From: Krischvirus LF73P4 | Length of the DNA stretch: 64,000 nt | Sequence record: OZ035795.1 | Strand: one strand, 5' to 3' | Shown here: positions 4,349-61,400 of the stretch, one piece after another | How the letters are laid out: each line of letters opens with the position of its first letter | How positions within the stretch are numbered: the stretch's first letter is position 1 | Program-made: the position numbers and the translations under genes | Notes under the pieces: model-generated | What the model saw: the letters and a program-made list of their open reading frames with translations, nothing else | Databases searched by the model: none | Told to the model about the DNA's origin: nothing

Positions 4349-4565
4349 CAGAGTAACGCAGCCGGAGTTAGAATTGTATACCTTAATCAATCTATATTCC
4401 GGTGAAGAATATGTAGTTAGTATGGGGGACATGAAAAACAGCATATACAGCGATGCAGACATAACAAAAATGTTGTCTTGTCGTCATCATGAGTTTATGC
4501 TGGTCCCCAAATTTGATAAACTTGATTACCCTGATGCTGGGGTTGCAACAAACTTTAGAACGTGA
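4335..4565 (+). CDS. hypothetical protein (uncertain)
   Basis: 76-aa ORF overlapping gp46 stop; no strong RBS. Confidence 0.3.
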   Translation: MLTFDRVTQPELELYTLINLYSGEEYVVSMGDMKNSIYSDADITKMLSCRHHEFMLVPKFDKLDYPDAGVATNFRT

Positions 4566-4571
4566 TATACT
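4543..4571 (+). promoter_or_regulatory. promoter candidate TTGCAA-17-TATACT
   Basis: -35 at 4543-4548, -10 at 4566-4571, upstream of ATG 4596. Confidence 0.3.
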
Positions 4572-4595
4572 GATTTTATTTTGGAGATTAATATT

Positions 4596-4973
4596 ATGAC
4601 TACTTCCGCAAACCTGGCTAAAATTACTGTAGCAGACATTCAGAACAAGAAAACCAGCCTCGAATTTGACCGAGCAATGAACAAGATCCGTAAAGCGTGG
4701 GTACTGCAAATGCCGGAAAGCGAGAAAGCTAAAATGAAGGTTATCCCGCAGCAAGCACGCTTTGAACTGTACGCGCATATTGATGATATGGTGCAAAAAG
4801 AATGGATCGCTGCAATGCGCAAGTATTACGATGATTCAATTGCTAAAGGCGCTAAAACTATTCGAGGTAAAGATATTCTCGAAAAGGGTTATCAGATTGA
4901 CACTGATGAACTGCTGATTGAAGCCGCTAGCGTAGTAGTAACTCGTCTGATCGCAATTGCTGATGGGAAGTGA
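4596..4973 (+). CDS. hypothetical protein
   Basis: ORF with GGAG upstream of ATG 4596. Confidence 0.5.
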   Translation: MTTSANLAKITVADIQNKKTSLEFDRAMNKIRKAWVLQMPESEKAKMKVIPQQARFELYAHIDDMVQKEWIAAMRKYYDDSIAKGAKTIRGKDILEKGYQIDTDELLIEAASVVVTRLIAIADGK

Positions 4974-4977
4974 TAGA

Positions 4978-5355
4978 ATGAAACGTATGAGCTTAAAAGA
5001 ACAAATGCTATTCATCCTACAAAATAGTAAATTATGTCATATTCCGTTTGACTATATCAAAGATAATGATGTAATGAACTACCGTCACGGGATAGAGTGT
5101 ATTGAGTGGTATTTTGTCCTAGATAAATTTGTTGATGATGTGATTCGTCGTAAACTTGCGTTTGATGTTCGTGGTGATCTGGTATATCTCGACGGAAAAA
5201 AGACCGCAAAGAATCCTGTTACTGTCTATGCTCTGCAACAATACTTGACAGCTTACATTGGATTGAAGTATACTCACTCATCCGATAAGGAAGCCGAGAA
5301 AAAATTTATCGAAAGAATGCTAAAGATTCAAAATGAGCACGAAGTAAACCCGTAA
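4978..5355 (+). CDS. hypothetical protein (sits where T4 has rpbA, immediately upstream of gene 45)
   Basis: 125-aa ORF; position only, no motif recognised. Confidence 0.4.
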   Translation: MKRMSLKEQMLFILQNSKLCHIPFDYIKDNDVMNYRHGIECIEWYFVLDKFVDDVIRRKLAFDVRGDLVYLDGKKTAKNPVTVYALQQYLTAYIGLKYTHSSDKEAEKKFIERMLKIQNEHEVNP

Positions 5356-5385: not shown

Positions 5386-6072
5386 ATGAAACTGACTAAA
5401 GAAACCATTGCTACCCTGAAAAACTTTTCCGCTATTAACCCAGGTATCATCCTGAAAAAAGGAAACGTCCTAATCACCAAAAACATGACAAACGTTGTAT
5501 ATGGTGAAGCGACTCTGAATCAAGAACTGGAACACGAAATCGGGATCTATGATCTTAACTCTTTCCTGGGCATTCTGAATCTGGTGGGCGATGAAGCAGA
5601 TATTACGGTTGATAACCGCACCGGAAACATTCGTGTGTCTAATGATCGTCTGAAAATTAATTATCCTGGTGCTAGTGCTGCTGCTATCGTATCACCGAAA
5701 GGCCGAGTTACTCCACCTGCAAGCGATGTAGATTACGAACTGAGCAACGACGATCTGAAACAGCTTATGAAAATGAGCAATCAGCTTAAAGTGGATCGCC
5801 TTGAATTTCTACCGATTGATGGTCGTCTGATGATCAAAGGCTGGGAAGAGATTGACAAAAATAATCCTAATGAGATGTTTTGTCTTGATATGGGCGAATA
5901 TACCGGAACCGCAGACTTCCATTTCTTTATTCGTAAAGATAACATGAAACTGGTTGCTACTGACTTCGGCGATTACAAACTGAGCTTCACTCGCCGTAAG
6001 GCTGTATGGCTGGCAAGTGAAACCGTATCTTATATGATCGCGTGTGACCTTGACTCCAGCTACACCGACTAA
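5386..6072 (+). CDS. 45: sliding clamp gp45
   Basis: 228 aa, same length and clear similarity to T4 gp45 as recalled; followed by clamp loader genes. Confidence 0.9.
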   Translation: MKLTKETIATLKNFSAINPGIILKKGNVLITKNMTNVVYGEATLNQELEHEIGIYDLNSFLGILNLVGDEADITVDNRTGNIRVSNDRLKINYPGASAAAIVSPKGRVTPPASDVDYELSNDDLKQLMKMSNQLKVDRLEFLPIDGRLMIKGWEEIDKNNPNEMFCLDMGEYTGTADFHFFIRKDNMKLVATDFGDYKLSFTRRKAVWLASETVSYMIACDLDSSYTD

Positions 6073-6084
6073 TATAATGTTTGT

Positions 6085-8104: not shown

Positions 8105-8136
8105 GAGTGTCTTTCGTAAGTGAAGGAGTTTATATT

Positions 8137-10815
8137 ATGTATTTTCTGTCATGTGAGCGAGTGGGTGATAAGATCTACGAGCGTTATATTGATGATGCTG
8201 GACAAGAACAAGAGCGTTACGTTGAATATACGCCAACTTTATTTCATCATGCCGCGCCCGGTATGGTTACGAATTATAAAGATATCTATGGCAAGCCTTG
8301 CATTGCTAAAAAATTCCCATCTATGAACGAGGCCAACAAATGGCGTAAAAAGATGGGAGAAATGGGGCAGGAGGCACTAGGGATGGATGATTTTATCATC
8401 TCCTATCTGTCCGATACATATAAAGGCGAGATTCGATATGACCGAAATAAAATCCGTGTAGCCTGGGTTGATATTGAGGTCACTGCACCGGAATTTCCTA
8501 AACCAGAAGAAGCGAAATATCCTATCGATGCTATTACGCATTATGATTCCGTACATGATCGTTTCTTTGTATTTGATTTGAAAGGAAAAAACGGTGAAAT
8601 CTGGGAAGCAAGCAAGTCTATTCTTCGACCTGATATTGTAGAGCGCGTTGTTTATAACGTCTATGACACAGAAGATGAATTGCTGTTAGAATACATCCGA
8701 TTCTTTGAGGAAAACCGACCCGTTGGTTTCACTGGCTGGAACACAGAAACATTCGATATTCCATATATCATTAAACGTATCAGTAATAAGTTCGGAAGTA
8801 GAACCGCTAACCGTCTAAGCCCATGCGGTAAGATTAAATCCCGAATCTCGCAGGATGATTTTGGCAACGAGCGTGAAGCATTTACGATCATGGGGATCGA
8901 AAGCCTTGATTATATTGACCTGTACAAGAAATTTAGCTTTACGACTCAACCAACATATGCATTAGATTATGTTGCTGAATATGAGACCGGAATCGGTAAG
9001 GTTGATTATGATGGTCCGTTAAAGAAATTGCGTGATGACAACCATCAACTTTACATCGATTATAACATCGGCGACGTTGATCGTGTGCTGGCGATTGATA
9101 AAAAGCGTGGATTTATCGATCTTGTGTATAGTCTATGTTTCTATGCAAAGATTAAATTTAACCATGTTTATAACCCGATGAAAGTATGGGATGCTATTAT
9201 CTTCGGATCTCTGAAAGCAGAGGGTAAAGTAGTACCGGAAAATAAGATACAGCCTAAGCAGACTTATCCTGGCGCATTCGTAAAAGAACCTGTACCGAAT
9301 GCTTACCGTTGGATGATGAGCTTTGACTTAACAAGTCTGTACCCATCTATTATTCGACAGGTTAATATTTCTCCTGAAACAATCGCTGGATCTTTTGATG
9401 CTGCACCGATGCACGAGTATATCAATAAAACTGCACCACGTCCGAGTGATGAGTATTCTTGCTCGCCTAACGGATGGATGTATAGAAAAGATATTCACGG
9501 TATCGTACCGATTGAGATTAAAAAGGTATTCGATCAGCGTAAGCAGTACAAAAACATGATGTTGGCATGTGATCGCAATGCTGAACTCTGTAAAGCGATT
9601 CTACACGATGAAAATCATGTTTATGGGGGAACCATTAGCTATAGCGTTGAAGTGCGTCACGACTTCGATGAAGCGTTTAAATCGATGCTTTCTGAATTGA
9701 GCAAAGATGCCTTAGAGAAATTGCTGGAAGAATGTAAAGACGAGTCGATCTTGTGCAATACAAACCAGCTTTCTCGAAAAGTTTTGATCAACTCCCTTTA
9801 TGGTGCGTTGGGGAATCCTAAATTCCGTTTTTATGATCTCCGTAACGCTAGTGCGATCACACTGTTCGGTCAGCTTGCAATTCAGTGGATTGAGCGTAAG
9901 ATTAACGAATACTTAAACGAGCTTTGCGGAACGACTGATTTTGCATATGTTCGTTATTGTGATACTGACTCCGTTTATGTGCTGGTTAACAATGTTATTG
10001 ATAAGGTTGGCGGGGAAGACCGTTTCGACGATACCGAAAAACTTGTTGACTTCCTTGATAATTTCGGTAAACATCGAATGGAACCTATTATCGACAAGGG
10101 ATATCGCGAGTTATGCGAGTACATGAACAACTATGAGCACTTGATGTTTATGGACCGTGAGGCAATTGCTGGTCCTCCGTTGAAATCTGCGGGTATCGGT
10201 GGATTCTGGACTGGTAAAAAGCGTTATGCTCTTAATGTTTGGGATATGGAAGGAACGCGCTTTGCTGAACCTAAGCTAAAAATCATGGGCTTGGAAACGC
10301 AACGTAGCTCCACCCCTAAAGCATGTCAGAAATCACTGAAAGAATGTATTCGCCGTATGTTGCAGGAAGGTGAAGAGTCATTGCAGGAATACTACGGTAT
10401 TTTTGAGCAAGAATTTAGAAAACTTGACTATCTTGATGTTGCTGCGGTATCATCTGCAAACAACCTACAGAAATACAGCGATTCAAACGGGTATCCGATT
10501 AAGGGTTGTCCGTATGCGGTTAAGAGTGTATTGTGTTATAATCGTAATGCTCGAAAATTCGGACTAGACCCGATTCGTGAGGGTGAGAAGGTTATGATTG
10601 TACCGCTTAAAGACCGAAATCCGTTTGGAGAAATCTGTTTTGGTTGGTTGTCTGGTACTCGTATTCCACCAGAAATTGAATCAGAGGTGTTGAAGTGGTT
10701 GGACTGGCCTTTGTTGTTTAATAAGACTTTCGTCAAACCACTGGAGAACATTACCACGGCTGCAAAGCTGCAATATGAAAAAGTTGCTTCACTGACTGAC
10801 CTGTTTGACATTTAA
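8137..10815 (+). CDS. 43: DNA polymerase gp43 (family B, with 3'-5' exonuclease)
   Basis: 892 aa from ATG 8137 (AAGGAG upstream); motifs DIEV, SLYPS, YCDTDS; collinear with T4 gp43. Confidence 0.95.
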   Translation: MYFLSCERVGDKIYERYIDDAGQEQERYVEYTPTLFHHAAPGMVTNYKDIYGKPCIAKKFPSMNEANKWRKKMGEMGQEALGMDDFIISYLSDTYKGEIRYDRNKIRVAWVDIEVTAPEFPKPEEAKYPIDAITHYDSVHDRFFVFDLKGKNGEIWEASKSILRPDIVERVVYNVYDTEDELLLEYIRFFEENRPVGFTGWNTETFDIPYIIKRISNKFGSRTANRLSPCGKIKSRISQDDFGNEREAFTIMGIESLDYIDLYKKFSFTTQPTYALDYVAEYETGIGKVDYDGPLKKLRDDNHQLYIDYNIGDVDRVLAIDKKRGFIDLVYSLCFYAKIKFNHVYNPMKVWDAIIFGSLKAEGKVVPENKIQPKQTYPGAFVKEPVPNAYRWMMSFDLTSLYPSIIRQVNISPETIAGSFDAAPMHEYINKTAPRPSDEYSCSPNGWMYRKDIHGIVPIEIKKVFDQRKQYKNMMLACDRNAELCKAILHDENHVYGGTISYSVEVRHDFDEAFKSMLSELSKDALEKLLEECKDESILCNTNQLSRKVLINSLYGALGNPKFRFYDLRNASAITLFGQLAIQWIERKINEYLNELCGTTDFAYVRYCDTDSVYVLVNNVIDKVGGEDRFDDTEKLVDFLDNFGKHRMEPIIDKGYRELCEYMNNYEHLMFMDREAIAGPPLKSAGIGGFWTGKKRYALNVWDMEGTRFAEPKLKIMGLETQRSSTPKACQKSLKECIRRMLQEGEESLQEYYGIFEQEFRKLDYLDVAAVSSANNLQKYSDSNGYPIKGCPYAVKSVLCYNRNARKFGLDPIREGEKVMIVPLKDRNPFGEICFGWLSGTRIPPEIESEVLKWLDWPLLFNKTFVKPLENITTAAKLQYEKVASLTDLFDI

Positions 10816-10832
10816 GATAAAGTGTGTATAAT
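10805..10832 (+). promoter_or_regulatory. sigma70-type promoter TTGACA-16-TATAAT overlapping end of gene 43
   Basis: -35 at 10805-10810, -10 at 10827-10832; GGCGGGT/ACCCGCC hairpin at 10833-10859 downstream. Confidence 0.45.
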
Positions 10833-10876
10833 GGCGGGTGTTGGGTGACGATACCCGCCAATGTGAGAAATATATT

Positions 10877-11065
10877 ATGAGAGACATTGAAAAGATTAAA
10901 CGTGAACGTGAGGAAGGCATAGAGCATTTCAAGAAAGTTCACGGAAATCACAGCAACGAAGTATTTGTGACGATCAATGTTGATGCGATGAAAAAGTTAA
11001 TTCAAGAGCACTACAAAGATCGAATAACAATGAAGCAATTAAAGTATTACGGATTAACTGAATAG
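10877..11065 (+). CDS. hypothetical protein
   Basis: 62-aa ORF between gene 43 and uvsX. Confidence 0.4.
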   Translation: MRDIEKIKREREEGIEHFKKVHGNHSNEVFVTINVDAMKKLIQEHYKDRITMKQLKYYGLTE

Positions 11066-11076
11066 AGGTATTAATA

Positions 11077-12147
11077 ATGTCTGTACTGGAAAAACTGAAA
11101 AAGAACTCTACCCTGAAAACTACTGCGGTACTGTCTAAATCCAGCTTCTTTAACGAAAAAACAAATACTCGCACTAAGATCCCGATGCTGAATATTGCGT
11201 TTTCAGGTGATCTTAAAAAGGGCTTTCAATCTGGTCTGATTTTCTTTGCTGGTCCGTCTAAGCACTTTAAATCAAACATGGGATTAACTTGTGTTAGTGC
11301 ATACATGAAACAGAATCCTGATGCGGCGTGTTTGTTCTTTGATTCTGAGTTCGGTATTACACCCGCTTATCTTGAATCTATGGGTGTAGATCCTGATCGC
11401 GTGGTGCATGTTCCAATCAAGAACATCGAAGAACTTAAATTTGAAATCATGAACCAGCTTGAGCAAATTACCCGTGAAGATAAAGTGATCATCTTTATTG
11501 ACTCAATCGGTAACTTAGCAAGTAAAAAAGAAGTTGAAGACGCGATTAATGAGAAATCCGCACAGGATATGACGCGAGCTAAAGCACTTAAAGGCTTGTT
11601 CCGTATGGTGACGCCATATCTGACTATGAATGATATCCCGTGCATCGCTATTAACCACACTTACGAAACGCAAGAAATGTTTAGTAAGACCGTTATGTCC
11701 GGCGGTACGGGCGCGATGTATTCAGCCAATGAAGTTTTCATTATTGGTCGTCGTCAGCAGAAAGAAGGAACCGAAATTACTGGTTATGATTTTATCCTGA
11801 ATGCGGAAAAATCACGAACCGTTAAAGAAAAATCTAAGTTCCCGATTAGCGTAACATTTAGCGGTGGTATCGATCCTTATTCCGGCTTGCTGGAATTGGC
11901 TGTAGAGTTAGGCTGGGTAGTGAAACCGTCAAACGGCTGGTATTCTCGTTCAATCCTAAATACCGAGACCGGAGAGATGGAAACCGAAGAACGCAAGTTC
12001 CGTGCTAAAGAAACCAATAGCATTGAGTTCTGGAAACCACTTCTGACAAACGATAAGTTTAACGAAGCAATCAACGATCATTATAAGCTGGGGCAAGTGA
12101 TCAGCGACGAAGCAGTTGACAAAGAAATCGAAGATATGTTAGCATAA
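11077..12147 (+). CDS. uvsX: RecA-like recombinase UvsX
   Basis: 356 aa; collinear similarity to T4 UvsX as recalled (e.g. KIPMLNIAFSG, IAINHTYETQEMFSKTVM). Confidence 0.9.
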   Translation: MSVLEKLKKNSTLKTTAVLSKSSFFNEKTNTRTKIPMLNIAFSGDLKKGFQSGLIFFAGPSKHFKSNMGLTCVSAYMKQNPDAACLFFDSEFGITPAYLESMGVDPDRVVHVPIKNIEELKFEIMNQLEQITREDKVIIFIDSIGNLASKKEVEDAINEKSAQDMTRAKALKGLFRMVTPYLTMNDIPCIAINHTYETQEMFSKTVMSGGTGAMYSANEVFIIGRRQQKEGTEITGYDFILNAEKSRTVKEKSKFPISVTFSGGIDPYSGLLELAVELGWVVKPSNGWYSRSILNTETGEMETEERKFRAKETNSIEFWKPLLTNDKFNEAINDHYKLGQVISDEAVDKEIEDMLA

Positions 12148-16599: not shown

Positions 16600-17118
16600 A
16601 TGTCAGAATTTAATTCTTGTGCTGGTCTGGTTAACGAAAAAGATATTAACGCGGCTATCGCCGCATATCATCACGCTATTGCAGAAGGTAAAGATCCGTT
16701 TCAGGTGATGCTCGAAATGCAAACTGGTTTGCAGGTTGCATTATCCGAAAAATTTGATTGGGTCCCAAATCCAACTAAGCTAGAGACTTGCGGTGAAATG
16801 CTGGATTGGATGCAACGGATGGATGACGCTATCGCAGACGAAACACGAGAGCTTTACACATCGCTGGGTGGAATGTCCAATGGTAAAGATGCAAGTGCAA
16901 TCTGGAAAATGTGGAAAAAGAACCACGGAGAAGCGCGAGCGCGTAAATTCTCTGAACTGTCACCGGAAGATCAGCTTGAAGTGAAATTTGAATTTGTGGA
17001 CGCGATCCACTTCATTCTGTCAAAGATGATCCCGCTGGGTATTGACGCTCAAGAACTCTTTATTCTGTACTATCTGAAAAATGCTGAAAACTTCGCCCGT
17101 CAAGAACGCGGCTACTAA
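16600..17118 (+). CDS. hypothetical protein; possible all-alpha NTP pyrophosphatase (MazG/gp56-like)
   Basis: 172 aa; acidic ExxE / ExxD helices; product call tentative. Confidence 0.35.
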   Translation: MSEFNSCAGLVNEKDINAAIAAYHHAIAEGKDPFQVMLEMQTGLQVALSEKFDWVPNPTKLETCGEMLDWMQRMDDAIADETRELYTSLGGMSNGKDASAIWKMWKKNHGEARARKFSELSPEDQLEVKFEFVDAIHFILSKMIPLGIDAQELFILYYLKNAENFARQERGY

Positions 17119-17125
17119 AAATTAG

Positions 17126-17154
17126 TTGACACTAATCTATAATGGTTTTATTAT
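17126..17154 (+). promoter_or_regulatory. promoter candidate TTGACA-17-TATTAT
   Basis: -35 at 17126-17131, -10 at 17149-17154; abuts terminator hairpin. Confidence 0.35.
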
Positions 17155-20392: not shown

Positions 20393-20635
20393 ATGGTTGT
20401 TATTAATAATGTGGCTAATGTAATACATCTACAATCAATTGTCGCGTGGAACCGTCAAAAGATTCATTGTGACTATGCACAACATGTAATGAATTTTAAC
20501 AACAAAGTACGCGCATACATGGCAACGGAACGACTGTTAACCGATAATTACGGTAACGGGATTATTGATTGTAGCGGTTTCATTCTGGATAAAAACGATC
20601 TGGAGTTGTTCCGGCATATCGCGGAGGATATTTAA
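20393..20635 (+). CDS. hypothetical protein
   Basis: 80-aa ORF. Confidence 0.4.
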   Translation: MVVINNVANVIHLQSIVAWNRQKIHCDYAQHVMNFNNKVRAYMATERLLTDNYGNGIIDCSGFILDKNDLELFRHIAEDI

Positions 20636-20636
20636 A

Positions 20637-21305
20637 ATGCTTCCAGTGGATTTAATGATTGACTTTGAAAGTTTAGGTTATCCGCCCGATGGGGCGGTTA
20701 TCAATATGGCGGCAATCGGATTTAAAGAAGATCCGCACAATCCACCTACATTTAAAGAACTGGTCGACAATTCCTTTCTGGTAAAATTTGATATTCCTTC
20801 CCAGAAAGGTGTAAGGGTGTTTGATCATGGTGTGGTTGAATGGTGGAAGAATACCGCCTCAGAAGGTATGAGAAAGCAATTAATCACAAATGGTACGGAA
20901 GTATCAACTAAAGAAGGTTTAGCGCGTTTTAACGCATTCTGTGAAGCCGTAGGGGTAGATCCGGTTAAATCCGTAATGTGGTCACGCGGTAATGCGTTTG
21001 ATATTCCGTTACTAGTTGATATGATCCGCCGTGCACACAATACACGAGAGACGTTCAGCCTTGAACCTGTGCGATTCTGGAATATCCGAGATGTTCGCAC
21101 CGCCATTGAGCGTACATTGATGCATCGCGGGATGTGTGAGTGTCCGTTACCAATGGGTACGCTAGATGGTTTTATCGCACATGATGCAATTCATGATTGC
21201 GCTCGCGATATTCTTATGCTAATCTATGCACAACGTTATGCTATGGGTCTGGAAGACCTACCAGAAAATCCAGATCCAAATTCAGTTAAGAAACAAAGGG
21301 GATAA
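20637..21305 (+). CDS. dexA: exonuclease A DexA (3'-5' exonuclease)
   Basis: 222 aa from ATG 20637 (GGAGGA upstream); collinear similarity to T4 DexA as recalled. Confidence 0.85.
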   Translation: MLPVDLMIDFESLGYPPDGAVINMAAIGFKEDPHNPPTFKELVDNSFLVKFDIPSQKGVRVFDHGVVEWWKNTASEGMRKQLITNGTEVSTKEGLARFNAFCEAVGVDPVKSVMWSRGNAFDIPLLVDMIRRAHNTRETFSLEPVRFWNIRDVRTAIERTLMHRGMCECPLPMGTLDGFIAHDAIHDCARDILMLIYAQRYAMGLEDLPENPDPNSVKKQRG

Positions 21306-23403: not shown

Positions 23404-23967
23404 ATGAAAAGTGCGAAATTTTGGAATACTGAAATTCAAGAGGAATTAAAACGAAGATTTGGACACACGGAAGGTGTTCTATATCACAAAACAAATAGTC
23501 CGTCTTTTAATGGTCTGCCAGAGGGATATTTCTACCAAGTCGGTGATAAAGTAAAAACAAAAAAGTTAAATTACGGTCATTTGGCAATAGATGTTTACAA
23601 TAAGGTTAAAAAGAGAACATCTACATATCTTGTACATAGAATTGTCTGGTTTCTTGAATATGGAACACAGGTTAAGGTAATAGACCACATAGACGGGAAT
23701 CCAGAAAACAACAATCCACCAAATTTACGGGAGGCAACACAACAACAAAACATGTACAATAAAAAGAAAATGGACGGGTGCACGAGCATATATAATGGTG
23801 TTACTCATCGCAAAGGATCTAGCAAAAGACCGTGGCAAGCACAAATAAGGATAAACGGATACAGAAAATACATAGGATCGTTTGCTACTCAGGAGGAAGC
23901 CGCTAGAGCATATGATGAATATGCAAAAATTCATCATGGGGAGTTTGCATCTTTAAATTTTAGTTGA
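23404..23967 (+). CDS. HNH homing endonuclease with AP2-type DNA-binding domain
   Basis: HRIVW...IDHIDGNPENN...NLR HNH motif and YRKYIGSFATQEEAARAYDEYA AP2-like segment. Confidence 0.8.
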   Translation: MKSAKFWNTEIQEELKRRFGHTEGVLYHKTNSPSFNGLPEGYFYQVGDKVKTKKLNYGHLAIDVYNKVKKRTSTYLVHRIVWFLEYGTQVKVIDHIDGNPENNNPPNLREATQQQNMYNKKKMDGCTSIYNGVTHRKGSSKRPWQAQIRINGYRKYIGSFATQEEAARAYDEYAKIHHGEFASLNFS

Positions 23968-33036: not shown

Positions 33037-33795
33037 ATGAAAAACATTATCGCTGCTATCGTTCTTTCCGCTACTGCTTTCGGTGCTAATGCTGCGTCCT
33101 TTGATTGCGCTAAAGCTACTACCAAATCAGAGAAGTTTATTTGTGCTAATGAGTCTATCTCCGCACTGGACTCTAAACTTCATGAAGTGTATGTTAAGGC
33201 TGTTAAGATTGATCCGTCTCTGAAACAAGAGCAACGAAACTGGAATAAAACTGTTCGTGATACAATGATCAATATCGGGCAGATTCAGCCACTGGAGGCT
33301 GTATACAACGCTCAAATCCAAAACTTGATGAATGTATTACCTAAAGAAGAAACCGCGTCAGAAAGCGATTCAGAGACTTCTGCGAAGGTTGAAGAAGAAC
33401 AACCGAAACAGGAAGCAAAAGTGGTAGAAGAACCGAAGGTCGAAACTTTTACCTATCAATGCACCGTTCGTTATGAGTGGAGTATGAAAGATGGAATTTC
33501 CACAAAAATTAAAGAAGCGCCACTGTATGCCAAATATGGAAATCAACCAGGAGATCTTAAAGTAACCATTAAAAATGGGAAGATGGTTGATTTTGTATAC
33601 ATTGATGAATACAACGTACACAAAGCAAACGTACAAGAAACCGTTATGACTAAAGGCGGGTTTTATAAGAATGTTGGCAAGAAAGATCTATATGAATACT
33701 CCGTTTTCGAACCAAACGACGGAACTATTCGATTCGAAAAACGTCATCCTACATTCGGTGGCGCAATTGATGTAGATCAATACGTTTGCAAGTAA
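33037..33795 (+). CDS. exported protein with DUF1311/LprI-like N-terminal domain
   Basis: Signal peptide ending ANA; FDCAKATT..EKFIC..ESISALDSKL..Y motif; acidic/lysine linker. Confidence 0.55.
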   Translation: MKNIIAAIVLSATAFGANAASFDCAKATTKSEKFICANESISALDSKLHEVYVKAVKIDPSLKQEQRNWNKTVRDTMINIGQIQPLEAVYNAQIQNLMNVLPKEETASESDSETSAKVEEEQPKQEAKVVEEPKVETFTYQCTVRYEWSMKDGISTKIKEAPLYAKYGNQPGDLKVTIKNGKMVDFVYIDEYNVHKANVQETVMTKGGFYKNVGKKDLYEYSVFEPNDGTIRFEKRHPTFGGAIDVDQYVCK

Positions 33796-35488: not shown

Positions 35489-35812
35489 ATGATCGAGTTT
35501 GAAATTGACAACTTTCACGAAAAAGCAGAAGACTTAACCAAAATTTTGATTAGTCGAGGTGCATATAATACGAAAGATATTATAAAAGAAGTTAATGTAG
35601 CGATGGACGCGATCCAAAAGGAATTTAAACATATTTCAGCGATTGGAGAAAATGGTCATCTTGAAGATGTTGAGCTGGTAGCACTGCGACGCTATTACTT
35701 CTTTGTTGATTGCATCATTGATCTAGCTAAAAATTATAGTCATTACATGAAAGATATTGTAAACGATGCACGTAAGTTGGCAGAGAATGTTTACGGGAAG
35801 TTTCCAGAATGA
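35489..35812 (+). CDS. hypothetical protein (paralog of 35042-35374)
   Basis: 107 aa; GAGG upstream of ATG 35489. Confidence 0.5.
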   Translation: MIEFEIDNFHEKAEDLTKILISRGAYNTKDIIKEVNVAMDAIQKEFKHISAIGENGHLEDVELVALRRYYFFVDCIIDLAKNYSHYMKDIVNDARKLAENVYGKFPE

Positions 35813-36057
35813 AATTAGAACAAGCGATTGTATACTTTGAGATGGGCTATGATATTGCTCGTGTAGAGTGGGAAGATGGTGATTTTGTCCGATTGATTGA
35901 TCTTCCAGAAACAGCTATTGCACTGGTCAAAGTAGAAAACGGCATACAACGAAATTACGCGTTTTCTGACGAAGACAAACAAGCCGATGACTGGTACGCT
36001 ACATGTTTTCATCATACAGCGTCAAAATGCGATTCAGGCGCGTCTATGCGTCAATAA
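35809..36057 (+). CDS. hypothetical protein
   Basis: 82-aa ORF. Confidence 0.45.
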   Translation: MKLEQAIVYFEMGYDIARVEWEDGDFVRLIDLPETAIALVKVENGIQRNYAFSDEDKQADDWYATCFHHTASKCDSGASMRQ

Positions 36058-40764: not shown

Positions 40765-42255
40765 TTAGAAAGTACCAAAATCAATTACCGCATTAAGCGG
40801 AACAGCGCCAACATCATCAGGAGTTGGTTTGTGTCCTTCGTGGTATAATTCAAATGTATCGGTGTCCTGAGTATTGTTGCGTGATTTAACGAAAATAATT
40901 TTAGAATCATGTGTGATGCCTAGTTTCTCGTGCGCTTTAATATCACTAACACGATGAATCATTGCTGTGCCATCTAAGCTATTAAGTCCAGCGTAGCAAT
41001 TATCACCATTATAGTTAGCTTTTGCGGTACGAACGCCGTTTGCAGCGGGAACTGTCAAAGCACCTCTCATGGTATCGCCAGTCACATTAACATAGCGAGC
41101 ATCAGCCAATTTACGGTGATCTACATAGTTCCATGCGGTCCATGATTCATTAGAACAAGAACGCCAGCACATCGGATGATCAATAGATTCAGGATAGTAT
41201 ACCTGAACAATTCGACGAGTACCGACCGCATCTTCTGGGCGATATACCATCAAAACGCCGTTATAATAGCTATCAGACGGTTTATTAGTACCTGATCCAG
41301 CATTTTCCACACGATAGATACCGCGATTAATAAGAGTGTTCCAATCAACGTTTCCAATGATTGTTGGATTTGCTACCATTGATTTTTTCTCAAAGTAGCT
41401 CAAACGAACCAATTCATTAGGACCAGCAGGATCGTTTGTCGCCAACATTCTAGGCGCTTGCAAGTTACCTTCCATAATATCACCAGCACGTTTAACCTGT
41501 GCATCATTGGTGACATTACCTAGTCCAACATCGGCTTTAGTCGGTTTATTGTTGGTGTGGTAGAATCTACCTGCCTTGCCATTAACAGAAATTGTCGGCT
41601 CGTTTTTGCTACTGAATGCCAAAGTATCAAGACTATTTCCAAAATAAATGGCATTAGAATCGAAAGCAATGAAACCACGATCCCGCGCAAGTATTTTCGA
41701 ATTAACATCAAGTTTAAATGTAGCCGTGTTTAAATTATACGTTCCCGTGAGAGTATCACCGCGACGAGACACCAAATCCAAATCATTGTTTGTCGGCTTA
41801 TTAACAGGACTATAGACGCGTTGACCAGTGTCTTTAATGGTTGTCCCTTCGATGGTCCCTTTAGTTTTAAAATCACCTGTGGTAGTGTCAATATAAGCCA
41901 TGATAACATCATCACGAGCATTAACAAAACCAATAGATTTCCACGAATGCAAACCCCAACTTACACCATCAAAGTTAGCCGCATCGCTCTTTCCTTTAAA
42001 GATCCCGTTCTTTTTGGTTTCTCCACCGGATGCGCTACCTACGCTTAAACCTTCCTCAAAATGGACCAGTTTCTGAAATGTACCACCCTCAGATGCACTA
42101 ACAGCATCAAAATCGGCAGCCGAAGGTTTATCAAAAGCGGTATAGATTTTATGACCTTTATAGAAAAGCTGATCACCCGCTGGCTGGATCGTCAAGTTTC
42201 CTTGCGTCCAAATGGGAGATCCGCCTACAGTAGATCCATGTTTCAAATCTGCCAT
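40765..42255 (-). CDS. 36: long tail fibre hinge/connector protein, gp36-like (enlarged)
   Basis: 496 aa; N-terminus MADLKHGSTVGGSPIWTQGN...PAGD resembles T4 gp36; directly upstream of gene 37. Confidence 0.6.
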   Translation of the reverse strand: MADLKHGSTVGGSPIWTQGNLTIQPAGDQLFYKGHKIYTAFDKPSAADFDAVSASEGGTFQKLVHFEEGLSVGSASGGETKKNGIFKGKSDAANFDGVSWGLHSWKSIGFVNARDDVIMAYIDTTTGDFKTKGTIEGTTIKDTGQRVYSPVNKPTNNDLDLVSRRGDTLTGTYNLNTATFKLDVNSKILARDRGFIAFDSNAIYFGNSLDTLAFSSKNEPTISVNGKAGRFYHTNNKPTKADVGLGNVTNDAQVKRAGDIMEGNLQAPRMLATNDPAGPNELVRLSYFEKKSMVANPTIIGNVDWNTLINRGIYRVENAGSGTNKPSDSYYNGVLMVYRPEDAVGTRRIVQVYYPESIDHPMCWRSCSNESWTAWNYVDHRKLADARYVNVTGDTMRGALTVPAANGVRTAKANYNGDNCYAGLNSLDGTAMIHRVSDIKAHEKLGITHDSKIIFVKSRNNTQDTDTFELYHEGHKPTPDDVGAVPLNAVIDFGTF

Positions 42256-42296: not shown

Positions 42297-42465
42297 GAAT
42301 GTTAACAAAATATCGCTTCGCGACGTGCCGTAGGCACTGACTACTTTTTAACCGAAACAAATTTTCTATTATTCTAAAGATCTTTCTTCGTTTTGGTTAT
42401 GTTTTAACCAATAACTATATTTTTATACAGTAATAAATAAAACGGGTACTATACGAGGACTTCTT

Positions 42466-42750: not shown

Positions 42751-43572
42751 TTATGCATCCTTCCAAACTTTCCTTGCGTCGTATTTCTTGCCTTTTGACA
42801 TAAACTGATATGTAGGCATATAGATAATATTGCTCCAGTCTTTCGGGCTAATCTCAACAAGTTTTGTTTTAATGTGTCCCGGTAGATATGCTTTGATCAT
42901 GTGATCACTTCCACGCATACCTTTTACATCGCTCCATTTGATTTTTAAGCGTGTTTTATTGCTCAAGGTAGGAGTAGATGCATATTGCTTTAAAAGTGCC
43001 TCTAAAAACTGCTGACGGGCTTTAGGCGTTACATAGTGTAAGTTAAGACCCAGCATTACAGTATTACCCGCCTTTGTCTTAGAATCACCCAGACAAATGA
43101 TCAGCGGGAAAACATCCCAATATGGTAAAGTGTCTTTATACTTCGCATCATACATAAAGGTATAGATTCGCCCTACTTGCGGTTTTACAATCTGGTGTCC
43201 CTTTATTCCCGCTTTTATTGTTTTAGTAAACCACTCCTGTGATTTTTCTTTAGGACGACTCTTTGATACAGCACGCATAGACGCACGAAAATCATTAATC
43301 ATCATCATTGCGCGTTGCTGCTTATTGAGACCCTTTGCACCTTTCCCTTTTAGTTTTTCAACTTCTATTGCTGTTTTAATTTCGCTGGCATAACGAGACA
43401 TACTTTTAGTGAAAGTCGCATAGGCTATTCCCTTAGAATCTGCAAATGCTTTAGCTGTCATGCCTTTGGCTTTTGCTTTCGCAAATTCTACACCCAATTC
43501 GACCCACTGTTTAGACTTTCTTTTTTGGGGAGACGGCTTTTCGTCTTCTGTGATTATTTCAAATACGCTCAT
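42751..43572 (-). CDS. 2: DNA end protector protein gp2
   Basis: 273 aa, basic; size and position next to gene 4 as in T4. Confidence 0.65.
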   Translation of the reverse strand: MSVFEIITEDEKPSPQKRKSKQWVELGVEFAKAKAKGMTAKAFADSKGIAYATFTKSMSRYASEIKTAIEVEKLKGKGAKGLNKQQRAMMMINDFRASMRAVSKSRPKEKSQEWFTKTIKAGIKGHQIVKPQVGRIYTFMYDAKYKDTLPYWDVFPLIICLGDSKTKAGNTVMLGLNLHYVTPKARQQFLEALLKQYASTPTLSNKTRLKIKWSDVKGMRGSDHMIKAYLPGHIKTKLVEISPKDWSNIIYMPTYQFMSKGKKYDARKVWKDA

Positions 43573-53686: not shown

Positions 53687-54003
53687 ATATTAAACTGCAT
53701 TATACAATGGGTAAACCAAAACATCCAATGCATAAAGTGTTTTGGGGCTTGCATCTTCAAGAAAAATGGCATGATAACTATTGGTTTTGTGACCATGATA
53801 AGAAGTGGCATTCTCAAGATGAAGTTAATGCGATGATGGAACATGGTATAAAATTTAATTACTCTAATTATGACCATAGCATTACTTGTATTCGAAAATT
53901 GAAACGGTTTATTCGAAAGAATCCGCAATTTAAAAACTTTGTGTTCTTTATGTCTCATGTTTATTTGGGGCATAGCGTTACCGTAACAGCAAAGGTTAAA
54001 TAA
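53674..54003 (+). CDS. hypothetical His/Trp-rich protein (cassette gene 2)
   Basis: 109 aa; start overlaps upstream ORF. Confidence 0.5.
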   Translation: MARVNIKLHYTMGKPKHPMHKVFWGLHLQEKWHDNYWFCDHDKKWHSQDEVNAMMEHGIKFNYSNYDHSITCIRKLKRFIRKNPQFKNFVFFMSHVYLGHSVTVTAKVK

Positions 54004-54842
54004 TGGCACGACTTTCTAAACAAGAGCAAAAATTACACGATCGGGCGATGGAGCTAATCAATTCAGATCGCCCATTGACCTATGAAGAAAAAGAATTTTG
54101 CTATAACAACTATCATGGCGATGGGCTAGGTGGTTCCGGTGCATTCTTTACCCCAGAAGGGCTTGCCTGGGATTTTACCATTGATGCACACTGCACCGGA
54201 AAAGTATTGGACCTTTGTGCTGGGATCGGTCGTTTATCTTTTTGTATGTTGCATCGCTGTAAGCCAGAAAAGATCGTATGCGTCGAACTCAATCCAGAAT
54301 TTGCGAGGATTGGCAAGCGACTATTACCGGAGGCAGAATGGATCACCAGCGATGTATTCGAATTTGAGTCAAACGAGAAATTCGATGTTGTAATTAGCAA
54401 TCCACCTTTCGGGAAAATCAATACAACCGACACAAAGGATGTATTTGAGTACACTGGCGGCGAATTTGAATTTAAGGTTATGACATTAGGCCAGAAGTTT
54501 GCCGATGTAGGTTATTTTATTGTTCCTACTGGTTCCGCTGGTTTTGCCTATTCCGGTAGACCTTATTATGATGGATCAGTGAAGTCTAATAAATATCTAA
54601 AATGGAGCAAACAAACTGGTTTGGTGACTTATGCCGGATGTGGGATCGATACATCAATCTATCGCGATGAATGGCACAGTACCAACGTTTTAACAGAAGT
54701 GGTTGAGGTTCGGTATTACGAGAAAGAAGCCGTAGAAGCGCCTAAATCGCGTCCTAACGAACAAATAGAAGAAAGTAAGGAGATTACCTTACCGGAACAA
54801 GAAACAGCGTCTGGGACGCTCTCAGACTTGTTTGACATTTAA
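54003..54842 (+). CDS. gamma-class N6-adenine-type DNA methyltransferase (cassette gene 3)
   Basis: 279 aa; motif X GAFFTPEGLA, motif I VLDLCAGIGRL, motif IV VISNPPFG. Confidence 0.75.
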   Translation: MARLSKQEQKLHDRAMELINSDRPLTYEEKEFCYNNYHGDGLGGSGAFFTPEGLAWDFTIDAHCTGKVLDLCAGIGRLSFCMLHRCKPEKIVCVELNPEFARIGKRLLPEAEWITSDVFEFESNEKFDVVISNPPFGKINTTDTKDVFEYTGGEFEFKVMTLGQKFADVGYFIVPTGSAGFAYSGRPYYDGSVKSNKYLKWSKQTGLVTYAGCGIDTSIYRDEWHSTNVLTEVVEVRYYEKEAVEAPKSRPNEQIEESKEITLPEQETASGTLSDLFDI

Positions 54843-59631: not shown

Positions 59632-61400
59632 TGATCGAACAATTAAACATTCGAAAGATCCCTAACGTCGATGGTGTCCCTGGAGAGGGACAACATTCTA
59701 TTAGCTGGATTAAAAATGGTGAATGTCTAAGCGCAGCAACCACAGAAACAGGACACGAGGGGACGCTTAACCGCGCCCCTTATGCGATTCAAGAAAATAT
59801 TGTTCGTTTGGATGAAAATTCTAAGACAACGGTAACAAAAGTTAACGAAGTTGTTACAGCAGTTAATGATATTAAAACTACTTTAGGCGCGGTTGCTGAT
59901 GGTAGTATTATTGATATTGTCAATCAAACTATTGCAAAGGTTGAGTCTGTAGAAGAAAATTTAGGAGAAACTTCAAGGACATTACAAACCACAGTAGATG
60001 AACTGGCGGAGACAGGAAAGAAAATTGGTGTTCGTCCGGCAGCAGATCCGAGTACACGAACAATATATGATGATATTTCTTTCATCAAACAAGAATTGGG
60101 CGCTTTCCCTAACTTCAATATCAACGGTTATCCAGATCCAGGTAGTTCCGGTTCCGGTATCAAATATAGAGTTATCCAGAATACGGAAGCATTAAACAAC
60201 CACGGTCAGCGAATCCGCCAACTAGAAAACGACTGGCAAGATTCTGACGTTGGAGAGCTAACAGAACAAGTTAACAAAATGCGAAGCGAGCTAGGAGACA
60301 CATCACTAGCAACACAGGACAATGTTTATCTTCGTCTTCGCACAAACACTCGCAATATCGCTAGTATATCAAACGAAGTTCAGGAAGTAAAGAAAGCGAT
60401 TCTATTTGAATCAATTCCCGATATCGGGACTAAAGTAACTAAGCTACAATCTGATTATACACAGCTTAATGATGAAGTCAACGGCTTTGACGCTGGTATC
60501 CGTCCTCGTTTAACTCTTCTGGAAAATAAGATCGGCAATCCTCAAGCCGCTGGAAGTATTGATTATCGATTGACCAATCAAGAACTGGAATTTGTAGATC
60601 TTAAATCTATTGTCGGTGTCAGTGGTGCTGATGGCCTACGTGGTGAGGTTGCACGAATCTCTAACACAGTTGGTACTGACAGTGAGCGTCATACTATCGC
60701 AGGTCGTCTAAAAATTGTAGAAAACACACAGGGACGACTAGAAGCTAGCGTACAGGATATCGAGCAAATGATCGGCGATCGAGATTCCGGTCTAACCGCC
60801 GGGGTTATTAAGCTGTCAAGCGACATGTACGGCAATCCAGAAGGAAGCACGCAGCTTGAACAAGATGGGATCGTGAAAACTGTTAAGGCATTGAGCACAT
60901 CAAATGCAAGCAAGGTAACAGACGTTCCTGATGATGGTTTCCATTATCTACGTAAGCACGGGGAATGGGTTCAGGTCGCATGGGCGGCTGGTGCATTTAA
61001 AAACACCGCTCAGATTGATATTACTCTCGACGGACAAGATCAATACAAAGGAATCCCGCTAAACGATATGACCGAAGAAGTTCCTGCGCGTGGAATGGTT
61101 AAGAGCGAATCTCTTGTTACGGTTAACGACAAAGGCTTATTCCGTTGTGTTTTCCGTTGTTCTGTAAATGCGGCACATAACGCTACTTTCGTAGTCGGTA
61201 TTGCTAAAAATGGTCAGATTGTACATGAGGTACGAAATGGTCATTATGGAACTGATGATTTAATTAGCTATTCTACCAGTGCTTTCCTAAATATTGAAAA
61301 GGGCGACCGGATCGATATTCGCATTAAGGGCGTATCCGAAGAAGCATTAGCGCAACAGCTACAAATTAAAGAGTTCCTCTTTGGAATTTCTCCGGTATAA
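59631..61400 (+). CDS. wac: fibritin (whisker) Wac with extra C-terminal domain
   Basis: 589 aa; N-terminus like T4 fibritin (EGQHSISWIKNGE); internal foldon-like PDDGFHYLRKHGEWV. Confidence 0.8.
   Translation: MIEQLNIRKIPNVDGVPGEGQHSISWIKNGECLSAATTETGHEGTLNRAPYAIQENIVRLDENSKTTVTKVNEVVTAVNDIKTTLGAVADGSIIDIVNQTIAKVESVEENLGETSRTLQTTVDELAETGKKIGVRPAADPSTRTIYDDISFIKQELGAFPNFNINGYPDPGSSGSGIKYRVIQNTEALNNHGQRIRQLENDWQDSDVGELTEQVNKMRSELGDTSLATQDNVYLRLRTNTRNIASISNEVQEVKKAILFESIPDIGTKVTKLQSDYTQLNDEVNGFDAGIRPRLTLLENKIGNPQAAGSIDYRLTNQELEFVDLKSIVGVSGADGLRGEVARISNTVGTDSERHTIAGRLKIVENTQGRLEASVQDIEQMIGDRDSGLTAGVIKLSSDMYGNPEGSTQLEQDGIVKTVKALSTSNASKVTDVPDDGFHYLRKHGEWVQVAWAAGAFKNTAQIDITLDGQDQYKGIPLNDMTEEVPARGMVKSESLVTVNDKGLFRCVFRCSVNAAHNATFVVGIAKNGQIVHEVRNGHYGTDDLISYSTSAFLNIEKGDRIDIRIKGVSEEALAQQLQIKEFLFGISPV

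Follow-up and report, generated by a model that had tools for sequence, protein, structure and literature searches.

The gene 43-uvsX interval of Krischvirus LF73P4 holds a promoter-early stem-loop and a small conserved ORF, and no T4 hydroxymethylcytosine genes

Introduction

In phage T4 (NC_000866), gene 43 and uvsX are separated by 3,635 bp that carry imm.1, imm, 42, beta-gt and segA, and in phages with hydroxymethylcytosine (hmC) gene 42 is accompanied by alc and denB. The phages of the RB49 group differ from the T-even phages in this respect. RB49 has neither the hydroxymethylase nor the beta-glucosyltransferase, and HpaII and NheI cut its DNA but not that of T4 (Yaung et al. 2014, PMC4041780). 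Consistent with this, "RB49 (no 5hmC)" plates on cells expressing GmrSD, to which it is insensitive (PMC4437046). Homologues of DenA and of the dCTPase/dUTPase are retained in RB49 (Nikulin et al.). A paper from 2025, on T4-related phages and their generalized transduction, described Krischvirus as devoid of the hmC transferase and endonuclease IV (PMC12115623). In 2026, a paper on the Durham phage collection aligned the nrdD-rIIA region of RB49, TB34 and SAP with those of T4, T6 and RB69, noted the absence of the hmC genes at the syntenic sites across the genus, and reported TB34 DNA to be unmodified by HPLC/MS (PMC13390438). Both the absence of these genes and the main conclusion drawn from it were established in the RB49 group more than two decades ago, and an explicit restatement of the synteny followed in 2026.

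The same phages possess a characteristic intergenic element, the promoter-early stem-loop (PeSL), which was defined in RB49 and phi1 by Arbiol et al. 2010 (PMC2839356). A PeSL consists of a near-perfect TTGACA...TATAAT promoter and a G-run/C-run stem-loop, and usually precedes an ORF without known function. There are about 50 PeSLs per genome, and Arbiol et al. suggested that they take part in modular shuffling. Promoter and terminator activities were demonstrated for some of the RB49 and phi1 copies, and copies in these phages have also been linked to recombination or mini-circle formation. [quoted passage not shown] Here we describe the corresponding junction of Krischvirus LF73P4 (OZ035795.1), of which a stretch of 64,000 nucleotides, hereafter the window, was analysed.

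Results

Placement of the window in the genus Krischvirus

The G+C content of the window lies between 0.375 and 0.425 (about 40%), and neither the Rfam nor the tRNA scan of the 64 kb returned a match, so that no tRNA gene was found in it. About 40% G+C and no tRNA genes are both traits of the genus Krischvirus. A 5-kb query across the gene 43-uvsX junction matched 65 phage records, 58 of them with at least 95% identity, and at least 80% of the query was covered at one place in 58 records. Among the matches listed, FL04 (99.7%), KMB43 (99.0%) and RB49 (98.3%) are highly similar over the 5 kb, and the records examined all belong to Krischvirus. Most of these listed matches align as one piece across the junction; the few that align in two pieces (e.g. 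JSE and MIZ4/MIZ5) have gene 43 as two DNA polymerase features, with an HNH endonuclease additionally listed in the MIZ4/MIZ5 records. On sequence grounds, the window is assigned to Krischvirus, i.e. to the RB49-like "pseudo-T-even" coliphages.

Over 25 kb, the best match of any record to the window reached 98.2-98.5% identity, and the phage collection contained no identical record. The window is closest to FL04 at 43-uvsX and closest to KMB43 at genes 8-9. As no record is identical to it, LF73P4 represents a new mosaic member of the genus.

Architecture of the gene 43-uvsX interval

The gap between gene 43 and uvsX spans 261 bp (10816-11076) and contains a sigma-70 promoter that matches the consensus perfectly, a stem-loop of 12 bp and a 62-aa ORF (Table 1). 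The first-pass annotation had described an interval of about 260 bp with a single 62-aa ORF and a promoter, and had placed imm, gene 42 and the beta-glucosyltransferase gene here in T4; the former is borne out by the coordinates and the latter by the T4 record. The order of the flanking genes, 46, 45, 44, 62, regA, 43 ... uvsX, 40, 41, 61 and 56, is common to T4 and the window, whereas the 62-aa ORF is unrelated to the five T4 genes. A tblastn search with the five T4 proteins of the interval (imm.1, imm, 42, beta-gt and segA) found nothing in the 261 bp, which therefore holds no pseudogene remnants of them.

Table 1. Features of the junction and further loci of the window (positions are those of the window).
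Feature	Position	Strand	Characteristics
Gene 43, DNA polymerase, left border	8137..10815	+	Pfam DNA_pol_B and DNA_pol_B_exo1; called 43 in RB49 and FL04
Early sigma-70 promoter, TTGACA-N16-TATAAT	10805..10832	+	12/12 consensus; same site is a "hypothetical early promoter" in the RB49 record
G-run/C-run stem-loop	10832..10860	+	GGCGGGUGUUG / loop GGUGA / CGAUACCCGCC; stem-loop half of the PeSL
62-aa ORF, RB49p025 homologue	10877..11065	+	phrog_12120, E = 1e-41; ATG to TAG
uvsX recombinase, right border	11077..12147	+	Pfam T4_UVSX_C and RecA; 64% identical to T4 UvsX
Gene 56 homologue, dCTPase/dUTPase family	16600..17118	+	49% identical to T4 gp56 over 173 aa, E = 7e-51
Putative SAM-dependent methyltransferase with NPPF motif, lying between genes 8 and 9	54003..54842	+	motif I VLDLCAGIGRLS, motif IV NPPFG

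For gene 43, the start was taken from the RB49 and FL04 annotation, as the mechanically called ORF (902 codons) opens at a GTG at 8107; its stop is the TAA at 10813-10815, both in the sequence and in the ORF list. The start of the 62-aa ORF likewise follows the ATG annotated in RB49 and FL04 (10877), the mechanical list giving a 75-aa version from a GTG at 10838. This ORF is preceded by a weak Shine-Dalgarno sequence, GAGA (10865-10868). The uvsX ORF comprises 356 codons from the ATG at 11077, and its Shine-Dalgarno sequence GAGG (11065-11068) overlaps the stop codon of the 62-aa ORF.

The promoter and stem-loop match a PeSL

The -35 hexamer TTGACA (10805-10810) overlaps the last codons of gene 43 and is separated by a 16-nt spacer from the -10 hexamer TATAAT (10827-10832); an extended -10 (TGn) is absent from this promoter. 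It is the sole perfect 12/12 match to the sigma-70 consensus in the 43-uvsX stretch. Weak sigma-70-like sites (at least 9/12) are not commoner there than chance, with four observed compared to 5.1 expected from shuffles. The adjacent stem-loop pairs GGCGGG...CCCGCC within a stem of 12 bp and is not followed by a U-tract. Its minimum free energy of -23.7 kcal/mol (z = -5.8) was equalled by none of 200 shuffles. When the whole window was scanned for composites of a promoter and a hairpin, this copy (10805-10860) ranked as the strongest. In the gap, only the perfect promoter match, taken with its hairpin and conservation, exceeds chance.

The element has a near-consensus promoter upstream of a small ORF with its own Shine-Dalgarno sequence and ATG, and next to the promoter a stable G-tract/C-tract stem-loop. 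The order of promoter, stem-loop, Shine-Dalgarno sequence and ATG of a small ORF is the same as in the PeSLs of RB49 and phi1 (Arbiol et al. 2010; Comeau et al. 2014). There are two minor differences: the spacer is 16 nt in the window copy versus the N17 quoted for PeSLs, and the -35 hexamer is preceded by the end of gene 43, compared to AT-rich intergenic DNA in the published PeSLs. Judged by these features, the promoter and hairpin 3' of gene 43 correspond to the known PeSL element, and we infer the activity of this copy from its RB49 and phi1 counterparts.

Transcription from this promoter would start at about 10839-10840, some 7 nt past the -10 hexamer, and would run through the 62-aa ORF into uvsX, 40 and 41. 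As the 5' arm of the stem contains the predicted start point, the full hairpin would form only on transcripts that read through from gene 43. By analogy with the PeSLs that have terminator activity, the stem-loop probably attenuates or terminates this read-through.

No homologue of MotA or AsiA was found by tblastn in the window or in FL04. In a phage without the MotA/AsiA middle mode, early-type promoters would have to serve the recombination and replication genes, and the absence of both proteins fits early-type promoters driving uvsX-40-41. Consensus sigma-70 promoters with downstream hairpins precede replication genes at further sites besides 10805-10832, e.g. 6050-6078 and 17126-17154. 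Such sites, in addition to the missing MotA and AsiA, fit a T4-like phage in which middle-mode transcription is lacking.

The 62-aa ORF belongs to a small conserved family

Copies of the 62-aa ORF with at least 95% identity occur in 58 records, and those of RB49, phi1, JSE and FL04 are 97-100% identical to it. The ORF bears the motif HFKKxHGNHSxEV, of which the family form is R-E-x-A-I-E-H-F-K-K-x-H-G-N-H-S-H-E-V. A word-indexed search found Krischvirus copies only. An exhaustive search of 1.84 billion cluster representatives yielded eight for this family, including seven distant relatives; all are 56-77 aa long, and R11, I15, F18, H22, G23, V29 and R49 are invariant. The seven distant homologues carry no annotation, and the ORF itself has no match in Pfam or NCBIfam. 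Given this conservation, it looks like a genuine small protein.

The ORF also shares 46% identity over 50 aa with the N-terminus of an ORF of Klebsiella phage KpTDp1 that is annotated as a DUF2800/PD-(D/E)XK exonuclease, and in Salmonella phage Akira the homologous stretch is a free-standing 60-aa ORF. Because DUF2800 begins at residue 63, the N-terminal similarity in this Jedunavirus "exonuclease" ORF may reflect an over-extended start annotation. The position of the 62-aa ORF beside uvsX, together with the recombination-type nuclease of KpTDp1, gives a faint hint of an accessory role in recombination.

The junction in related phages

The RB49 record shows the order 46, 45, 44, 62, regA, 43, "hypothetical early promoter", RB49p025, uvsX, 40, 41, ..., 61, 56. 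Compared to the junctions of RB49, phi1, JSE and FL04, that of the window has the same gene order, early promoter and 62-aa ORF, and nothing of substance differs. These four phages are likewise without 42, alpha-gt, beta-gt, alc and denB, and keep 56. By the coverage of the 5-kb query, the compact junction is shared across the genus, with 58 Krischvirus records.

Outside the genus, the junction varies. In Slopekvirus (Klebsiella phages KP27 and KP15), a different genus whose UvsX is 58% identical, uvsX directly follows gene 43 after a 74-bp gap that has a predicted terminator, no hmC genes and, in contrast to the window, no promoter/ORF cassette. In the one Mosigvirus examined, more than 4.5 kb upstream of uvsX is occupied by genes. 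Shewanella phage Thanatos-2 encodes a dCMP hydroxymethylase at a distance of about 3 kb upstream of uvsX, and gene 43 and uvsX are not adjacent in the KVP40-like ValKK3. Across the genomes compared, the gene order points to the site upstream of uvsX as the usual home of a cytosine-modification module where one exists, and as a compact site in lineages without one.

Search for the hmC pathway in the window and FL04

The search covered the 64-kb window and the closest complete genome, FL04 (162,587 bp), so that the possibility of hmC genes elsewhere in the genome was tested in relatives. With tblastn, T4 gp42 aligned only to the td gene of FL04 (23% identity, E = 0.006). The best E values of beta-gt, alpha-gt, alc, denB, arn, ndd, imm, imm.1, segA, motA and asiA in the window and FL04 were about 0.01-0.6. 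The two T4 glucosyltransferases, alpha-gt and beta-gt, gave no match better than E of about 0.6; T6-type TAGT and the RB69 arabinosyltransferases were not among the queries. By the same approach, homologues of T4 Dam and DenA were found in FL04, and a dCMP deaminase was found as well. No glycosyltransferase domain was detected by Pfam or PHROGs in the large unassigned ORFs of FL04, which received goF-like, helicase, CapR, Ig-like/Hoc-like and protease-inhibitor assignments.

For a more sensitive search, a profile HMM of the gp42 family was built from T4 gp42 and its 120 best database homologues (121 sequences; the homologues 58-96% identical) and run with filters off on the complete six-frame set of 3,586 segments from the window and FL04. 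It gave a single match, at FL04 72855-74090 (E = 9e-6), and nothing in the window. The protein at this place, Td, passes the NCBIfam model thym_sym with 283 bits (cut-off 108), compared to 30.6 bits for T4 gp42 on the same model. It carries LGLPFN, with an Asn where T4 gp42 has Asp179, and this position sets the specificity for uracil versus cytosine in the thymidylate-synthase family. FL04 td was thus rejected as a hydroxymethylase on the thym_sym equivalog score and on Asn versus Asp; by these marks, the one thymidylate-synthase-superfamily gene of FL04 is assigned as a true dTMP synthase with the dUMP-specifying Asn.

The Krischvirus Td (FL04 72861-74093) has a length of 410 aa and contains an insertion of about 135 aa (residues 118-253), on either side of which one of two matched stretches of the conserved fold lies. 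Both the catalytic CH and the LGLPFN motif are intact.

One enzyme of the T4 hmC pathway is kept in the window, namely the gene 56 homologue (Table 1), which matches Pfam dUTPase_2 and phrog_173 (NTP pyrophosphohydrolase) and is called 56 in RB49. A phage expected to need dCTP thus keeps a gp56 homologue, for which a dUTPase-only role is possible. Of the T-even glucosyl-hmC set, the window and FL04 accordingly hold gp56, but no gp42, alpha- or beta-glucosyltransferase, alc, denB or arn.

Methyltransferases of the window and the genus

The ORF at 54003-54842 carries the SAM motif I and a (D/N/S)PP(Y/F) motif IV, as DNA amino-methyltransferases do. In Pfam it passes the thresholds of MTS (38.6 bits) and Eco57I (28.2 bits, cut-off 25.3), and stays under that of N6_Mtase (16.7 bits, cut-off 20.4). 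It falls in phrog_3820, labelled "DNA methyltransferase". Enzymes with an NPPF motif include protein-glutamine and rRNA methyltransferases (HemK/PrmC and RsmC), and its best NCBIfam and PDB matches are of this kind (HemK/PrmC, RsmC), all far under their cut-offs. Together with two small ORFs, it lies between genes 8 and 9 in 57 of the 58 Krischvirus genomes; given this conservation, it is an insertion relative to T4 that has become a fixed feature of the genus. The first-pass annotation had listed it as a cassette methylase, which holds as regards a SAM-dependent NPPF methyltransferase, which may act on DNA, protein or rRNA, but not as regards a variable cassette.

Two further enzymes are encoded in FL04 outside the part corresponding to the window. 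The first is a D12-class Dam (4462-5274), 47% identical to T4 Dam. The second is a 238-aa Dcm-like protein of the C5-cytosine methyltransferase fold (89684-90400; phrog_757) with FPPC and ENP motifs, which scores below the PF00145 threshold; about 1,500 phage records contain it overall, about 56 of them from Krischvirus, and it is widespread in other coliphages. With Dam, the Dcm-like protein and the NPPF enzyme, the genus therefore has three putative methyltransferases. The reliance on another modification suggested in the first-pass annotation is only partly supported: the relatives carry orphan Dam and Dcm-like methyltransferases, and methylation is a plausible alternative means of DNA protection.

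Discussion

The cytosine of LF73P4

The missing hmC genes at 43-uvsX are an already published hallmark of the RB49 group, which had gone unrecognised in the earlier reading of this DNA. That reading had proposed that the phage may not make glucosyl-hmC DNA, and had called for a search of the genome for gene 42, alpha-gt and beta-gt. Carried out on the window and FL04, the search found none of the three, only td; and the proposal is well supported by the absence of a gp42-type enzyme, glucosyltransferases, alc, denB and arn, in addition to the experiments on RB49. Judging from its gene content, LF73P4 probably does not make glucosyl-hmC DNA. We hold with high confidence that it is a Krischvirus that has no T4 hmC module and has DNA with unmodified cytosine, and that its gap between 43 and uvsX consists of a PeSL and a small gene. 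Such a phage would replicate with ordinary dCTP and package unmodified-cytosine DNA, for which reason the genus would never carry imm.1-imm-42-beta-gt-segA between 43 and uvsX. For this particular isolate, we infer chemically unmodified DNA from its relatives.

Several points count against this reading of unmodified cytosine. The gp56 homologue and, in FL04, DenA are kept, and both serve the exclusion of cytosine DNA in T4. In addition, 5-hmdC has been reported in the Krischvirus SAP, and the genome, at about 164 kb, is represented here by a window of 64 kb.

The report on SAP bears on the alternative that survives best, namely that Krischviruses, possibly including this one, make an hmC-derived hypermodified cytosine by a pathway non-homologous to gp42 and the T-even glucosyltransferases. 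In HPLC/MS, SAP DNA contained about one-third 5-hmdC and two-thirds alpha-gentiobiosyl-mdC, and it was cleaved by BrxU; the authors did not find the pathway genes and left the modification unexplained (PMC13390438). If LF73P4 were like SAP, its pathway would be encoded among the unassigned ORFs, in which the genome is rich, or by the divergent Dcm-like C5-methyltransferase-fold protein of its relatives. However, TB34, which is 99.96% identical to SAP, is unmodified, and the modification profile of SAP grouped with those of seven Tequatrovirus phages of the same collection (PMC13390438). RB49 DNA is cut by HpaII and NheI (PMC4041780) and RB49 is insensitive to GmrSD (PMC4437046). Moreover, replacing dC completely would call for dCTP exclusion and glycosyltransferases as well, none of which were detected. 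We therefore regard such a pathway in the genus as very unlikely, and its presence in LF73P4, in either of the two forms above, as equally improbable. Because of the grouping with the seven Tequatrovirus phages, a mixed or mislabelled SAP lysate is suspected, which is the more likely explanation compared to a new pathway. The SAP report is nevertheless the only live question, and the residual novelty, near the present finding: if the hmC of SAP is real, the known pathway genes being absent from the window and FL04, it would require a new biosynthetic route.

Marginally less probable still is that gene 42 and the glucosyltransferase genes are present in LF73P4 and have moved outside the window. 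Only about 40% of a Krischvirus genome lies in the window, and accessory genes do shuffle in T4-like genomes. Against this stands the complete genome of FL04, which contains none of them and whose sole thymidylate-synthase-superfamily gene is a bona fide dTMP synthase. Furthermore, hmC genes are likewise absent according to the surveys published for RB49 and the genus, and the companions of gene 42 in hmC phages, alc and denB, are also missing from the window and FL04. A recent deletion private to this isolate or its assembly, for which one might cite a junction at 42302-42411 that is found in no other Krischvirus genome and marks the isolate or assembly as not wholly standard, has a negligible probability and is already refuted as the origin of the compact interval by the 58 records in which the 5-kb query is at least 80% covered at one place and the 58 with a copy of the 62-aa ORF of at least 95% identity; in Slopekvirus KP27, too, gene 43 lies directly beside uvsX.

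The unmodified cytosine of the RB49 group, compared to the T-even phages, explains why ordinary restriction enzymes cut the DNA, why type IV modification-dependent enzymes are escaped, and why cloning and editing are easy. It also makes generalized transduction possible for RB49-like phages with cytosine DNA, which is a safety point for phage therapy.

Other loci in the window

The window is collinear with FL04 18027-60818 and then with the reverse of FL04 144694-122993, with the switch at 42302-42411; the genes on its two sides, both on the minus strand, are gene 36 (40765-42255) and gene 2 (42751-43572). Gene 36, encoding a tail fibre protein, is thus joined directly to 2, 4, 53, 5 and the genes that follow, with a stretch of about 84 kb (35, 34, rnh ... 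1, 3) either skipped or inverted. A 110-bp inverted repeat with 93% identity, the FL04 copies of which lie at 60710-60818 and 144586-144694, coincides exactly with the switch. None of the 58 Krischvirus records spans this junction, six long contigs with an identical gp2 have the normal order, and an independent Logan contig of 9.6 kb that encodes the identical gp36 stops at the repeat, about 106 bp upstream of gene 36. An artefact of assembly at the repeat probably accounts for the gp36|gp2 junction, with a real large inversion as the less favoured explanation.

Four further genes deserve mention. A free-standing HNH-AP2 homing endonuclease gene (23404-23967, plus strand; Pfam HNH_3 and AP2) directly follows gene 39. 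This segment is absent from FL04, and gene 39 beside it is 90.6% identical to that of FL04, compared to about 98% elsewhere, a divergence that would be expected in the surroundings of a mobile endonuclease insertion. In the hyperplastic region, an 82-aa ORF (35809-36057, plus strand) adjoins the holin gene t and scores above threshold for the Tad2-like domain of Thoeris anti-defence (27.9 bits, Pfam cut-off 25), which makes it a candidate anti-defence gene. Two accessory genes on the plus strand encode a 246-aa protein with an Rv2179c-like 3'-5' exoribonuclease domain (20565-21305) and a 252-aa protein with a weak match to the LprI (lysozyme inhibitor) domain (33037-33795).
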